The translations under genes and the position numbers were made by a program. A model generated the notes under the pieces. That model saw only the letters and a list, made by a program, of their open reading frames with translations, was not told the origin of the DNA and did not search any database. A stretch of 64,000 bases of DNA from Alphaproteobacteria bacterium. GTDB lineage: Bacteria > Pseudomonadota > Alphaproteobacteria > CALKHQ01. The DNA lies in the NCBI GenBank assembly GCA_965227515.1, contig CBDDFZ010000001.1:1568001-1632000 (forward strand), given 5' to 3'. Each line of letters begins with the position of its first letter. The stretch's first letter is position 1. Positions 26,862 through 36,429 of the stretch are shown piece after piece.

Positions 26862-27075
26862 GCGGCGTCTCGATCCCGGGCGGTGTCCGCATATCGTTCG
26901 GCGGCACGGCCATGTTTGCGCCCATTTTGCGCCCCAATTTCGCGCCAATCGCCGCAAATTGTGCGGTACGGGGAATTTTCAGTGCAATGAAGCATCCATC
27001 CATGGGCCTTCGGACGGGTTTGGGTGCTGGCATCAGCGGCGGGCGGCATGCCGGCCCGGCGCAACAGGAGTTGCC

Positions 27076-27837
27076 ATGACCATAATCGCGCGTATGGCGG
27101 TTGCGGCCGGCGGACTGGCCATTGCAGCCGCTTCGTCCGGGGCCGCCCAGGCTGACACCGTCTACAGCCGTTACGAGCTGCTGCTGGGCGGCACGCCGGC
27201 GGCAAAGCTGGAAACCGAGATCACGATCAATGGCGGCGACTATCGCGTCGCCGCGCAGGCCGAACTGACAGGCGGCTACGCCGTCATGGCGGACTGGGAC
27301 CTGACGGTGCGCACCGTTGGTCTCGTGCAGGGCGAATCCTTGCTGCCGCTGGACCACTACAAGGTTTCCGACGGCGGGGACCGGTGGGTGCAGATCAACT
27401 ATGCCGATGGCCTGGTGACCAATCTGGACTACCGCCCGTCGTCGCTGACCGTCGACGTTCAGGGCCTGTCGCAGGAGACGATCGACACCGCCATCGACCC
27501 GTTGACCGCCATCGCGATGCTGTCGCGGCAGGTGGGCGAGACCGGCAATTGCAGCGCCACGGCCTGGATTTTCGATGGCCGCAAGTATTTCGAGGCGACC
27601 GTCACCCACGGCGGACAGACCACGCCGCCGGCCGGCGACTACAGTGGCAGCGCCTACCGGTGCGTCCTTCAACTGGACGACGCTTCGCCCTATGGCCGGG
27701 TCGACGACGATCCCAACCGTTTCGACCTCTGGATCGCCCAGCCGGTGGCGGGCGCGCCCTACGTGCCAGTGGTGATCGACACCCGTGTCGGCTGGGGTTC
27801 GGTGCGGGTCGTGCTGCTGAACGCGCGTTCGAGCTGA
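27076..27837 (+). CDS. DUF3108-domain exported protein
   Basis: Signal peptide; AIDPLTA..C...IFDGRKYF; VPV.IDTRVGWG; paralog of 31..822. Confidence 0.72.
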   Translation: MTIIARMAVAAGGLAIAAASSGAAQADTVYSRYELLLGGTPAAKLETEITINGGDYRVAAQAELTGGYAVMADWDLTVRTVGLVQGESLLPLDHYKVSDGGDRWVQINYADGLVTNLDYRPSSLTVDVQGLSQETIDTAIDPLTAIAMLSRQVGETGNCSATAWIFDGRKYFEATVTHGGQTTPPAGDYSGSAYRCVLQLDDASPYGRVDDDPNRFDLWIAQPVAGAPYVPVVIDTRVGWGSVRVVLLNARSS

Positions 27838-28000
27838 TGTGAGATCAGGTCGGCCGCGGCAGACCAACATCGGGGCTTGAGGAGGTGTAGATGGGCTAAC
27901 GGCCCTTGTTTGGTGGCGTGCATGAGTGGTCGTCCCTCAAGATGTCGGTGTCATACACGGAGTCGGGTTTGCCGCTCCAAGACATCGAGGAGAGACGACC

Positions 28001-29038
28001 ATGAACTACTATGCCGGGATTGACGTTTCTTTGGAATGGTCATCGGTGTGCGTTGTTGACGGCGCGGGCGGGATTGTCTGCGAGGCTCGTATTGCGAGCA
28101 CGCCGGCGGGTTTGTTGTTGTGGTTTGGGTCTTTGGGGATTTCGGTTGAGCGGATTGGTCTTGAGGCGGGGCCGTTGTCGCAATGGCTTGTGCGGGGATG
28201 TAGCGAGGGCGGTCTTTCGGTTGAGTTGCTGGAGACGCGTCATGTTGCGCGAGCGCTTTCGACGATGCCGGTGAAGTCGGACCGCTCGGACGCACGCGGG
28301 ATTGCTCAGCTGATGCGTGTGGGCTGGTTTCGTCCGGTTCACTGCAAGTCTTTGGCGGCCCAGGAGATGCGGGCCCTTTTGAAGGGTCGCGACCAGCTCC
28401 GCGCGAAGCTGCACGATCTTGAGATGCACCTTCGTGGTCAGCTGCGGAACTTCGGGCTGAAGGTAGGGCACACCACCAGGCGCAGCTTTTCGACACGTAT
28501 TTCGGAGCTTGTGGCGGGGCATCCGGTACTGGAGGCGGGGGCGCTGCTGTCGGCACGCGATGGCCTGTTGCTATCGTTCACGGCGCTGGACCGGCAGGTC
28601 CGGGCGGCGGCGCAGGCCGACGATCGCGCTCGCCTGCTGATGACGGTGCCGGGCGTGGGGAGCATTGTCGGACTGACCTACTTGTCGGGAGTGGACGACC
28701 CCGGGCGGTTTGCCTCGTCGCGCCTGGTGGGTGCGCACTTCGGCCTGACGCCGACCAAGCGCCAGTCGGGCGAGAGCGAGGTGATGGGGCGGATATCGAA
28801 GGTAGGGGACGCCGATGTGCGCTCGGCCCTCTATGAGGCGGCACACGTGGCTCTGACCCGGCCGATCGAGGGCGGCTGGCTGAAGAGCTGGGCGATGAAG
28901 CTGGCCAGGCGTGCGGGCATGAGGAAGGCGAAGGTCGCGCTGGCGCGCCGGCTCGCCGTGATCATGCACCGGATGTGGGTTGACGGCACACCGTTCAACC
29001 ATGCCGGACCGGTGCGCCCGGCGATGGCGACAGCATGA
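28001..29038 (+). CDS. IS110 DEDD recombinase/transposase
   Basis: GIDVS, LEAG, KSDRSDA, TVPGVG, GLTPTKRQSG (catalytic Ser), ALARRLA. Confidence 0.95.
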   Translation: MNYYAGIDVSLEWSSVCVVDGAGGIVCEARIASTPAGLLLWFGSLGISVERIGLEAGPLSQWLVRGCSEGGLSVELLETRHVARALSTMPVKSDRSDARGIAQLMRVGWFRPVHCKSLAAQEMRALLKGRDQLRAKLHDLEMHLRGQLRNFGLKVGHTTRRSFSTRISELVAGHPVLEAGALLSARDGLLLSFTALDRQVRAAAQADDRARLLMTVPGVGSIVGLTYLSGVDDPGRFASSRLVGAHFGLTPTKRQSGESEVMGRISKVGDADVRSALYEAAHVALTRPIEGGWLKSWAMKLARRAGMRKAKVALARRLAVIMHRMWVDGTPFNHAGPVRPAMATA

Positions 29039-29094
29039 TGGCCGCGGCATAAGGAGAACCGACACACGAGCTTCGACGGGCACCGACACCGGCC

Positions 29095-29265
29095 CGTCGA
29101 GCGCCGTCCCGCGCCGGGACGATGGATCAGGTCAGGCCGCCATCCGGGATGTCGCCTCGCATGAGAGCACGCTTCCGTAGATTGGACCGACCGATCCTCG
29201 CATATCCATCTTGGCGGCGGCCCTGCGCCGACCCCGTACAGAAGCATGACCCAGGCGCCGGGACG
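29095..29265 (+). ncRNA. Putative bridge/seekRNA of IS copy 1 (boundaries approximate)
   Basis: Hairpin GTCCC-GCGCC-GGGAC; target guides CATCCGGG (29141-48) and CCGTAG (29175-80); donor guides CCATCTT (29206-12) and TACAGAAG (29237-44). Confidence 0.8.
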
Positions 29266-29304
29266 ACGAAAAAGGGATTGACCAACAATGGCCCGTTACA
29301 GAAG

Positions 29305-29385
29305 CCCGGATGGAGCGAAGCGCAATCCGGGGAACTCTGAGGTGAAGGTATGTCCCCGGGTTGCACTTCGTTCCACCCGGGCTAC
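29305..29385. repeat. GTAG-type REP doublet (left REP split by IS110; its GTAG is at 27887-90)
   Basis: CCCGGATGGAGCGAAGCGCAATCCGGG ... CCCGGGTTGCACTTCGTTCCACCCGGGCTAC. Confidence 0.88.
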
Positions 29386-29413
29386 GACTGAATCCGCGTA
29401 AGCCGATCCCGAT

Positions 29414-29836
29414 CTAGTCGTCGCGCTGCAAGCGCTCCATGCGCTCGTGGCGCTCCTGCGCCTCCAAGCTCAACGTGGCGATCGGCCGCGCCTCCAGGCG
29501 GCGCAGCGAGATCGGCTCCTGGGTCACTTCGCAATAGCCGTACGACCCGTCCTCGATACGCCGGAGCGCGGCATCGATCTTGGAGATCAGCTTGCGCTGG
29601 CGGTCGCGGGTGCGCAGCTCGATGGCGCGGTCGGTTTCCTTGGTCGCCCGGTCGGAAAGATCGGGCTCGGCCATGCTCTCGCCTTGCAGGCTGCGGATCG
29701 TATCGCTCGATTCCTGGAGCAATTCCGCCCGCCATTGCAACAGCTTGGCACGGAAATATTCCCGCTGGCGCCCGTTCATGAACTCCTCATCATCCGATGG
29801 GCGATAGTTGTCATCGATGATGATCTGGTCGTTCAT
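29414..29836 (-). CDS. dksA: RNA polymerase-binding factor DksA
   Basis: YRPSDDEEFMN..Q.EYFR, DLSDRA..E, ELRTRDRQRKLISKI, YGYCEVT.EPI...RLEARP. Confidence 0.95.
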   Translation of the reverse strand: MNDQIIIDDNYRPSDDEEFMNGRQREYFRAKLLQWRAELLQESSDTIRSLQGESMAEPDLSDRATKETDRAIELRTRDRQRKLISKIDAALRRIEDGSYGYCEVTQEPISLRRLEARPIATLSLEAQERHERMERLQRDD

Positions 29837-30056
29837 TGTCAAGCCGGGCCCCACCTCTGCTCCCCACAGCAACCGGCGGCTATATATCAACGCCGCCACG
29901 ATGCCGCAAGCGCTCAGCACACCTTCGTGCGCGCTCCATGCGCGATGGCAACACCTTGAATTAAATGGACTTTGAATTGGGCCGGCTTGCAGTGCCGATT
30001 CAGCGGAAGCCGATCCTGGCCTAGGTCGGGATCAGCTTACGCTGAATCTGCGCCAG

Positions 30057-35785: not shown

Positions 35786-35816
35786 GTAGCCCGGGTGGAG
35801 CGTAGCGCAACCCGGG
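35786..35816 (+). repeat. GTAG REP upstream of RAYT
   Basis: GTAGCCCGGGTGGAGCGTAGCGCAACCCGGG. Confidence 0.9.
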
Positions 35817-35853
35817 GATATTCTTCGGTCAGCTGGCTGGCTATCCTCGGTGG

Positions 35854-36381
35854 ATGGTTCGGTATCGCAGAAACCTCGTTCCCGGTGGCTCCTACTTTTT
35901 CACCGTGACCTTGCGGGACCGTCGGTCGAGCATTCTTGTCGACCAGATTGGCGCATTGCGAGATGCGTTCAGGGTTACGCGCGTCGCGCAACCATTCTCG
36001 GTCGACGCCATCGTTGTGTTGCCGGATCACATTCACACGGTGTGGACGCTTCCTGGAGGTGATGCCGATTACGCTGGGCGTTGGCGCCGTATCAAGGGCC
36101 GGTTCACATCACGGATAAAATCTCAGGAGGGGCAACTCGTGCCAAATGAACGGGGTGAGCATGCCCTCTGGCAGAGTCGGTTCTGGGAACACACAATTCG
36201 TGACGAGGACGACATGGAGAAGCACGTCGCCTACATCCACCACAATCCGGTGAAACACGGGCTGGTTCGACGCCCGTGCGACTGGCCGTATTCATCCTTT
36301 CATCACTACGTTCGCATGGGACATTTGCCGGCAGATTGGGCAACGGCGCCAGAGGGCCTGTCCGAGAGATTTGGCGAATAG
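35854..36381 (+). CDS. rayT: REP-associated tyrosine transposase (RAYT / TnpA-REP)
   Basis: YRR..VPGGSYFFTV, VLPDHIH (HUH), WQSRFWEHTIRD, YIHHNPVKHG, DWPYSSF; flanked by inverted REPs. Confidence 0.93.
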   Translation: MVRYRRNLVPGGSYFFTVTLRDRRSSILVDQIGALRDAFRVTRVAQPFSVDAIVVLPDHIHTVWTLPGGDADYAGRWRRIKGRFTSRIKSQEGQLVPNERGEHALWQSRFWEHTIRDEDDMEKHVAYIHHNPVKHGLVRRPCDWPYSSFHHYVRMGHLPADWATAPEGLSERFGE

Positions 36382-36398
36382 CGGCTGGACGGGAATGC

Positions 36399-36429
36399 CC
36401 CGGGTTTCGTTTCACTTCACCCGGGCTAC
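36399..36429 (-). repeat. GTAG REP downstream of RAYT (inverted)
   Basis: CCCGGGTTTCGTTTCACTTCACCCGGGCTAC. Confidence 0.88.

Follow-up and report, generated by a model that had tools for sequence, protein, structure and literature searches.

The locus and the insertion sequence

The DNA analysed here, referred to as the window, is a 64,000-nt stretch of the genome of an Alphaproteobacteria bacterium (GenBank assembly GCA_965227515.1, contig CBDDFZ010000001.1, positions 1,568,001 to 1,632,000). Between a DUF3108 gene on the left (26959–27837, + strand) and dksA on the right (29414–29920, − strand) lies an active-looking insertion sequence that interrupts a repetitive extragenic palindromic (REP) sequence (table 1). 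We consider it very probable that this is one copy of an IS1111-type element of the IS110 family, whose recombinase is guided by RNA and which inserts at REPs. The element, its sister copies, an empty site, a conserved fold and covariation of the guides with targets and element ends are all observed and are described below.

Table 1. Features of the insertion sequence and its insertion site, in window coordinates. A caret marks a junction.
Feature	Position	Strand	Description
Insertion sequence, guide variant A	27891–29304	+	1414 bp; this copy has an in-frame 6-bp deletion
Left target GTAG	27887–27890	+	last 2 bases, AG, are the core in common with the element right end
Left subterminal inverted repeat	27897–27914	+	18 nt, 78% complementary to 29281–29298
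5′ untranslated region (UTR) hairpin	27927–28001	+	arms of 12 nt, 92%; z = −3.25; 2/200 shuffles fold as well
Recombinase gene	28001–29038	+	345 aa + stop; DEDD/RuvC-like N-terminal domain; C-terminal domain with GLTPTKRQSG
Right non-coding end	29039–29304	+	266 nt
Predicted bridge/seekRNA core	29102–29268	+	closed by long-range stem P1 (29102–29118 with 29250–29268)
Target-binding arm	29120–29200	+	stem P2 (29120–29139 with 29183–29200), enclosing the target guides and hairpin P3
Right-target guide CCATCCGGG	29140–29148	+	complementary to top strand CCCGGATGG at 29305–29313
Hairpin P3	29151–29170	+	between both target guides, in the P2 internal loop
Left-target guide TTCCGTAG	29173–29182	+	same sense as left target plus core; CCGTAG at 29175–29180
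Right-donor guide CCATCTT	29206–29212	+	complement of AAG^ATGG, predicted at the circle junction
Hairpin P4	29213–29233	+	between the two donor guides
Left-donor guide GTACAGAAG	29236–29244	+	last 8 bases equal the element right end (29297–29304)
TTGACC, −35-like hexamer	29278–29283	+	17 nt before GAAG at the right end; TTGAC kept in relatives
Right subterminal inverted repeat	29281–29298	+	pairs with 27897–27914
Rest of interrupted REP	29305–29332	+	right target CCCGGATGG and palindrome CCCGGAT...ATCCGGG

The insertion point is GTAG^CCCGGATG in the REP, with the right end of the element at 29304 and CCCGGATGGAGCGAAGCGCAATCCGGG starting at 29305. Because AG is present at both junctions (27889–27890 and 29303–29304), the cut position is ambiguous by 2 nt. 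An initial annotation, made from the sequence alone, had stated that removal of 27891–29304 restores the REP and that an AG core stands at both junctions. The copies, 114 uninterrupted GTAG^CCYGGRTG sites and one assembled contig bear out both the boundaries and the core. That contig, from a sequencing run of another organism (run X10), connects 27888 to 29303 with exactly 1414 bases absent and with two letters at the joint that are compatible with either side; the same run holds a 1430-nt contig that ends at the element tips, at a depth approximately 10 times that of the flanks. As a distinguishing property, however, the AG core was overstated, since ISPpu9 has AG too and the complement of AG is CT, the core of IS621 at the equivalent position in its REP. 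A second, empty target, GTAG^CCCGGGTGG, lies on the − strand 50 bp downstream of the element (29355–29385) and forms an inverted REP pair with the occupied REP.

The recombinase gene and the element ends

The recombinase matches the Pfam domains PF01548 (DEDD_Tnp_IS110; E 9.3e-13) and PF02371 (E 2.3e-20) as well as the NCBIfam model NF033542, 'IS110 family RNA-guided transposase' (231 bits, cut-off 140). It is homologous to the solved recombinases of ISCro4 (E 3e-12) and IS621 (E 5e-11), the catalytic residues of the latter being named in the literature (PMC11208158/PMC11208160), and its GIDVS, LEAG, KSDxxDA and SG motifs align with those of ISCro4, the serine lying in GLTPTKRQSG. The left end of the element is 110 nt, the long non-coding end lies downstream of the gene, and the subterminal inverted repeats start 6 nt from each tip. 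Together, the two Pfam domains, NF033542, the subterminal repeats and the downstream non-coding region support the earlier assignment to the IS110/IS1111 group. The IS1111-type traits are the protein length (345 or 347 aa) and GLTPTKRQSG, the assignment being by length, motif and anatomy; the repeats, at 18 nt, were accepted against the approximately 7–17 bp usual for the group. Protein searches yielded nearest relatives of no more than 72% identity to the recombinase, none with an ISfinder name in the sources consulted, and the matches in protein and plasmid searches are annotated only as 'transposase' or 'IS110 family transposase'.

The 3′ arm of the 5′ UTR hairpin spans the ribosome-binding site and ends on the first base of the start codon. 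In relatives the arms differ yet stay complementary (GGTCGTCCCTC/GAGGGACGACC versus GCTGCGCTTC/GAAGCGCAGC), and the hairpin probably controls translation of the recombinase.

Copies in the genome and the REP family

Copies and sites were counted in the source genome, which comprises 2 contigs (5.52 Mb). It holds 20 full-length copies of the element (89–100% identity) and one internally deleted copy of 825 bp. The reading frame is open in all 20 full copies (345–347 aa), and each of the 21 lies between a left GTAG and a right CC(C/T)GG(A/G)TG, both junctions carrying AG. The 114 uninterrupted sites divide into CCCGGGTG (60), CCTGGGTG (33), CCCGGATG (18) and CCTGGATG (3). REP-like hairpins number 172 genome-wide, and eight full sites lie within the window.

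The interrupted repeat is a true REP with a REP-associated tyrosine transposase (RAYT) gene in the same window. This open reading frame (35854–36381, 175 aa) matches NF047646, 'REP-associated tyrosine transposase' (189 bits, cut-off 80), and has a REP on either side, the two in inverted orientation, at 35786–35816 (+) and 36399–36429 (−). The whole segment, 35786–36429, is a classical REP/RAYT unit, so the target REP family has its own mobilising enzyme nearby.

Several of the other copies merit description. A second copy in the window (L015, 42286–43708, − strand, 1423 bp, guide variant B) sits at GCGTAG^CCTGGGTGG of another REP. The most divergent copy (L020, C1:694774–696202, − strand, 89% identity) has in its right flank a 19-nt partial REP (CCTGGATGGAACCCCGTAG) followed by a full REP beginning CCTGGGTGG, a tandem arrangement. 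The deleted copy (L021/L022, C1:998357–999181) lies at TCGTAG^CCTGGGTGG and retains both ends and the donor half of the RNA, without most of the gene and without the target loop; it could be a non-autonomous derivative moved in trans. No orphan RNA modules were found in the genome, all 21 covariance-model matches lying inside the 21 copies, one each. Among 30 other genomes searched, including three of the same family, none matched the element's part of the query, and REP-like matches were present in one of the three same-family genomes.

A conserved fold in the right non-coding end

The predicted RNA is a nested structure in which, after the P2 arm, the right-donor guide, hairpin P4 and the left-donor guide follow in that order before P1 closes. 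In P2, GATCAGGTCAGGCC (29125–29138) pairs with GGACCGACCGATC (29184–29196). The initial annotation had described a stem enclosing the target guides and a second loop with the donor words, each of which was found in its place, and had proposed RNA folding and a covariance model as a check; when these were run, a conserved and co-varying fold emerged. With the guide words kept single-stranded, 11 of the 12 related RNAs folded into one common architecture, the exception being L036. A covariance model built from this RNA gave one match, on the gene's strand and downstream of the gene, in each of 23 loci (E ≤ 0.01); L036 scored above this E-value limit and was omitted from the model alignment. In that alignment (21 distinct rows) 88.1% of cells pair, versus 30–44% with the partners slid, and 28 of 47 pairs are changed on both sides among the 21 distinct relatives, values that come from an alignment fitted to the model and therefore leaning towards structure. 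Any of the five pairing measures was reached by 0 of 500 shuffles. G-U pairs are frequent (18 of 21 at one pair, for example) and are compatible only with the + strand.

Two further structural candidates were discarded. A majority-vote structure from a MAFFT alignment of seven sequences was too ragged and was dropped, and pairing of a conserved GAUGG, between P1 and P2, with the right-donor guide was rejected on finding that it is not kept in L042.

Guide segments

All four guide segments are where the initial annotation placed them (table 1). CATCCGGG at 29141–29148 forms, with the preceding C, the 9-nt complement of CCCGGATGG. On the donor side, TACAGAAG stands at 29237–29244, and the predicted circle junction is TACAGAAG-ATGG. 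When the non-coding region was shuffled 20,000 times with dinucleotides preserved, the individual words turned up in 2.0%, 2.4%, 0.7% and 0.06% of the shuffles, at least two of them in 0.1%, and all four in none. Within the genome the donor guides are invariant among copies, while of the left target only GTAG is invariant, the left-target guide being short.

The AT that follows the left-target guide equals the first two bases of the element, in the manner of a handshake guide. In 10 of 10 distinct cases the two bases that follow the core in the 3′ target guide are the element's own first two bases; in L039 and L046 they follow a change from AT to CT at the element tip, and in no case are they those of its right target. 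Next to the left-donor guide, the following base is the first base of the right target in seven of 12 cases, and both bases agree in five of 12. The bases after the 3′ guides thus resemble the handshake guides of IS621, an analogy drawn from few independent changes.

Two guide variants within one genome

The copies in the genome fall into three variants: A, with the guide CATCCGGG (13 copies); B, with CATCCAGG (six copies); and C, also with CATCCAGG (one copy, the one of 89% identity). The guide of A differs from that of B and C by a single base, G or A, respectively, at 29146. Variant A occupies CCCGGATG nine times and CCCGGGTG and CCTGGGTG twice each (11 CCC and two CCT sites), variant B occupies CCTGGGTG in six of six cases, and the single C copy is at CCTGGATG, its perfect match. 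With the 825-bp deleted copy, which has no target loop, left out, the CCC/CCT counts are 11/2 for A and 0/7 for B and C (Fisher p = 4.6e-4); against the background of all sites, seven out of seven CCT for B and C gives p = 4.8e-4. Variant A also prefers CCCGGATG (9/13 versus a background of 31/134, p = 5.4e-4), filling nine of 27 perfect-match CCCGGATG sites and only two of 62 CCCGGGTG sites.

Every imperfect pairing between guide and target is a G-T or U-G wobble, and the A-C mismatch that variant B would make on a CCC site was not seen among the copies; wobbles without the A-C mismatch are what RNA–DNA pairing predicts. The insertions are independent events, as their flanks differ, the copies nonetheless being related by descent. 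For the idea that a change in the RNA alters the target, these natural variants offer indirect support. The genome may thus hold a natural guide swap, in which the lineage with A in the guide is found only at CCT and the lineage with G prefers the perfect CCCGGATG site approximately tenfold and tolerates wobbles; taken with the handshake-like bases, this could mean that an IS1111-type element amounts to an IS621-type machine viewed from the opposite strand. We give that combined reading an even chance. If it is true, the two would have in common the CT core, the position in the REP, a long 5′ guide, and a short 3′ guide with a handshake, and would differ in the nested three-way-junction RNA, whose donor loop is closed by a long-range stem.

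Guides and targets among relatives

A scan of one genome per species yielded 29 related loci (39–69% protein identity), nearly all of them in Alphaproteobacteria and two in Acidobacteriota genomes assembled from metagenomes. We compared guides with flanks across these elements, leaving L048 and L045 out of the guide matrices, as their guide region was unaligned, and L023 and L046 out of the right-flank matrix, as they yielded no right end. For 14 distinct elements we took the longest exact complementary run shared by the right-target guide region and the element's own right flank; its median is 9 nt, versus a mean of 4.0 nt for the flanks of other elements, and the observed sum was reached in 0 of 20,000 permutations. 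The left-target guide, anchored at AG, matches its own flanks at 73 of 104 positions in sum (off-diagonal mean 3.8 of 8; again 0 of 20,000 permutations). Examples of right guide–flank pairs are CATGCGGG with CCCGCATG, AATCCGCC with GGCGGATT and GGAATGCCTT with AAG^GCATTCC, and, at sites that are neither REPs nor palindromic, CAAACCTTCT with AG^AAGGTTTG and CATGTCCGCTT with AAG^CGGACATG; the majority of these example targets are not REPs. On the donor side, the left-donor guide always finishes with the same seven bases as the right end (ACAGAAG, AGAGAAG or AGCGAAG), and in L042 a GGCAT in the guide goes with the left end ATGCC. The order of the guides, their senses and their covariation with targets and donor ends all agree with the guide assignment of the initial annotation.

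These matrices also bear on the idea that the guides serve mainly excision and circle formation, or regulation of the recombinase (as an RNA that stabilises the protein, for example), and not the choice of target. The invariance of the donor guides among copies would suit such a role, as would the report that the RNA raised the yield of the ISEc11 transposase (PMC11187229). However, a donor-side or stabilising role leaves unexplained why the target guides co-vary with the flanks, and we regard this alternative as very unlikely.

Two side observations come from the same loci. L028 and L044 are inserted into one and the same sequence at positions offset by a single base (AAG^ACTCGAA versus AAG^GACTCGAA), and one of the two right-target guides has exactly the additional C that corresponds to this offset (TTCGAGT-CTT versus TTCGAGTC-CTT). 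In L039 (2564–3081, from a metagenome-assembled Hyphomicrobium sp.), the right end is approximately 540 nt long, with a second module resembling a target loop after a complete bridge RNA. It is this second module (GTTCCGTCC-CT) that fits the right flank present at the site, AG^GGACGGAA, and the first (CTTCGATCC-CT) does not; L039 may thus have two target loops, or the additional module may be what is left of a nested element.

Proposed mechanism and alternative explanations

Taken together, the sequence suggests a DEDD/serine recombinase that would be guided by an RNA of approximately 165 nt from the 3′ non-coding end, folded as a three-way junction. The initial annotation's word 'programmable' was an overstatement, programmability being a presumed property of the element. 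The excised circle would join the right end to the left end through AG and would be recombined into GTAG^CCYGGRTG at the foot of a REP hairpin without target duplication. Transcription of the RNA would probably start from a promoter that circle formation reconstitutes at the junction, and the RNA would bind the recombinase, with chemistry presumed to carry over from IS621 and ISEc11. Relatives have TTGAC 16–18 nt before the GAAG at the right tip, and the circle would give TTGACC-17-GAAGAT as a junction promoter. In line with this, a scan of the linear element for the sigma-70 consensus yielded no promoter-like sites. Three terminator-like matches fall on the subterminal repeats and were not accepted as terminators. 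No circle joint was listed among the assembled contigs of DNA runs, a kind of data that does not show circles and speaks neither for nor against one.

Several observations weigh against this reading. The folding energy of the whole non-coding end is unremarkable (z = −1.58; 12 of 200 shuffles fold as well), and RNAalifold on a plain MAFFT alignment of 17 RNAs gave only six pairs, because the helices are out of register in that alignment. A search of 27500–29700 against Rfam 15, at E up to 10, yielded no matching family in 29039–29296; this permissive scan returned seven weak matches to microRNA and small RNA (sRNA) families, all far under the gathering scores, and the two nearest the element begin at 29297 and 29302, on the REP pair. 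None of the sequencing runs that hold the stretch is an RNA run. At this copy the left-target guide matches only 4 nt: the initial annotation had taken CCGTAG as the left target, and that guide word is present, and no other left flank is as frequent in the REP family (33 of the 114 empty sites), but the flank here is GTGTAG, of which only GTAG matches. The two core-facing positions of the right-target guide are AU, not CU. Among relatives, the right-target guide fails to fit the right flank of its own element in three of the 14 (L025, L032 and, for its first module, L039), and L025 is also poor on the left flank, where L032 matches at 8/8. For ISPpu9, finally, the downstream sRNA Ssr9 is reported as unnecessary for transposition in the account cited (PMC12288879).

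Some of these points would fit a recombinase that recognises the REP hairpin or DNA shape by protein, with the guide-like words as REP-like debris or chance. The unexceptional folding energy and the ISPpu9 report lend themselves to that view, and REP-like words are common in the genome because the 3′ arm of the REP contains ATCCGGG. Yet relatives at non-REP, non-palindromic sites carry guides for their own flanks, the four words never come together in the shuffles, the fold co-varies, and a single-base guide variant accompanies a single-base target difference; recognition by protein is, in our view, highly improbable.

A different concern is that the family works as described and this particular copy is defective, its protein disabled and its movement possible only in trans. 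The copy is 1414 bp with 345 aa, versus 1420 bp and 347 aa in 12 sister copies, owing to a 6-bp deletion at approximately 28533, in a GGCGGT/GGCGGG repeat between the two domains; contigs of other runs carry the six bases. As it is without two amino acids of the 12 sister copies, its own protein may be impaired, a further point to be set with those above. However, the reading frame is uninterrupted, variable length is described for the stretch between the coiled-coil helices (PMC11187229), and neither the RNA nor either end differs from the sister copies. L015, too, is 6 bp and two amino acids shorter than its own sisters (1423 versus 1429 bp; the position of that indel was not located), and the repeated loss would suggest that it is tolerated. 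We consider a defective copy unlikely, if a good deal less so than recognition by protein.

Comparison with known systems

The element leaves existing knowledge unchanged, since its mechanism class was published in 2024 and is already in NCBI protein naming. What makes it valuable is that nature provides a clean example: 20 full copies and one deleted copy stand beside 114 empty sites on which site preference can be measured, two co-resident guide variants display single-base retargeting and wobble tolerance in nature, and relatives with different, readable targets provide a comparison set. It is a reasonable bench candidate for the IS1111-type bridge recombinases, a group that has received less study than IS621, and useful for work on the joint evolution of REP families and their parasitic elements.

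For the IS1111 family, Siddiquee et al. (2024, PMC11187229) describe an RNA that is encoded downstream of the gene, co-purifies with the transposase and is programmable, and Durrant et al. (2024, PMC11208160) report a predicted bridge RNA in 93% of ISfinder IS1111 elements, at the right end, with loops drawn for ISPpu10 and ISPa11, among others. The present element is like ISPa11, ISEc11 and ISKpn4, as presented by Siddiquee et al., in its DEDD transposase (330–350 aa in those elements, with a GL-P----SG motif), its subterminal inverted repeats and the extended non-coding stretch that follows the gene. The guide order is also the same, the top-strand match lying 5′ of the bottom-strand match in those elements and the top-strand-complementary guide lying 5′ of the bottom-strand one here. 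The only promoter reported there is that of the circle junction, which agrees with our scan of the linear element. ISPa11 is also found at a REP, although the REP targeted here is a different, alphaproteobacterial one.

Likenesses to IS621 (Durrant et al. 2024, PMC11208160; Hiraizumi et al. 2024, PMC11208158) are a 2-nt core, the rule that left guides (left-target guide, LTG, and left-donor guide, LDG) pair with the bottom strand and right guides (RTG and RDG) with the top strand (PMC11208160), and the position in the REP palindrome, where ATCAGGC-CT-AC in IS621 compares with CATCCGGG-CT-AC at this site on the other strand. The IS621 layout of a long 5′ guide followed by a short 3′ guide is likewise seen here on the other strand, and in the 3′ target guide the two bases that follow the core agree with the donor rather than the target, as reported for handshake guides. 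In contrast to IS621, this element encodes its RNA in the right end rather than the left, its guides come in the opposite order with respect to the gene, a long-range outer stem in a three-way junction closes off the donor guides where IS621 has a separate second stem-loop, the right-target guide is not fully paired with the core, and the protein match to IS621 (E 5e-11) lies mainly in the C-terminal domain.

ISPpu9 and ISPpu10 of Pseudomonas putida are, according to Pares-Guillen et al. (2025, PMC12288879), IS110-family elements located in REPs with AG at both ends. ISPpu10, which Durrant et al. list with a predicted bridge RNA (PMC11208160), forms a hybrid promoter at its circle junction (PMC12288879), comparable to the junction promoter that we infer here. 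The host class and the REP differ, and ISPpu9 is described with an additional sRNA module, ssr9, that moves on its own, whereas we found no orphan RNA module in this genome. REP targeting has been reported for IS621 (PMC11208160/PMC11208158), ISPa11 (PMC11187229) and ISPpu9 (PMC12288879), and neither the AG core nor the REP target is new. By its sequence, the element stands at no more than 72% protein identity to the nearest relatives found and belongs to a kind that is already well described.

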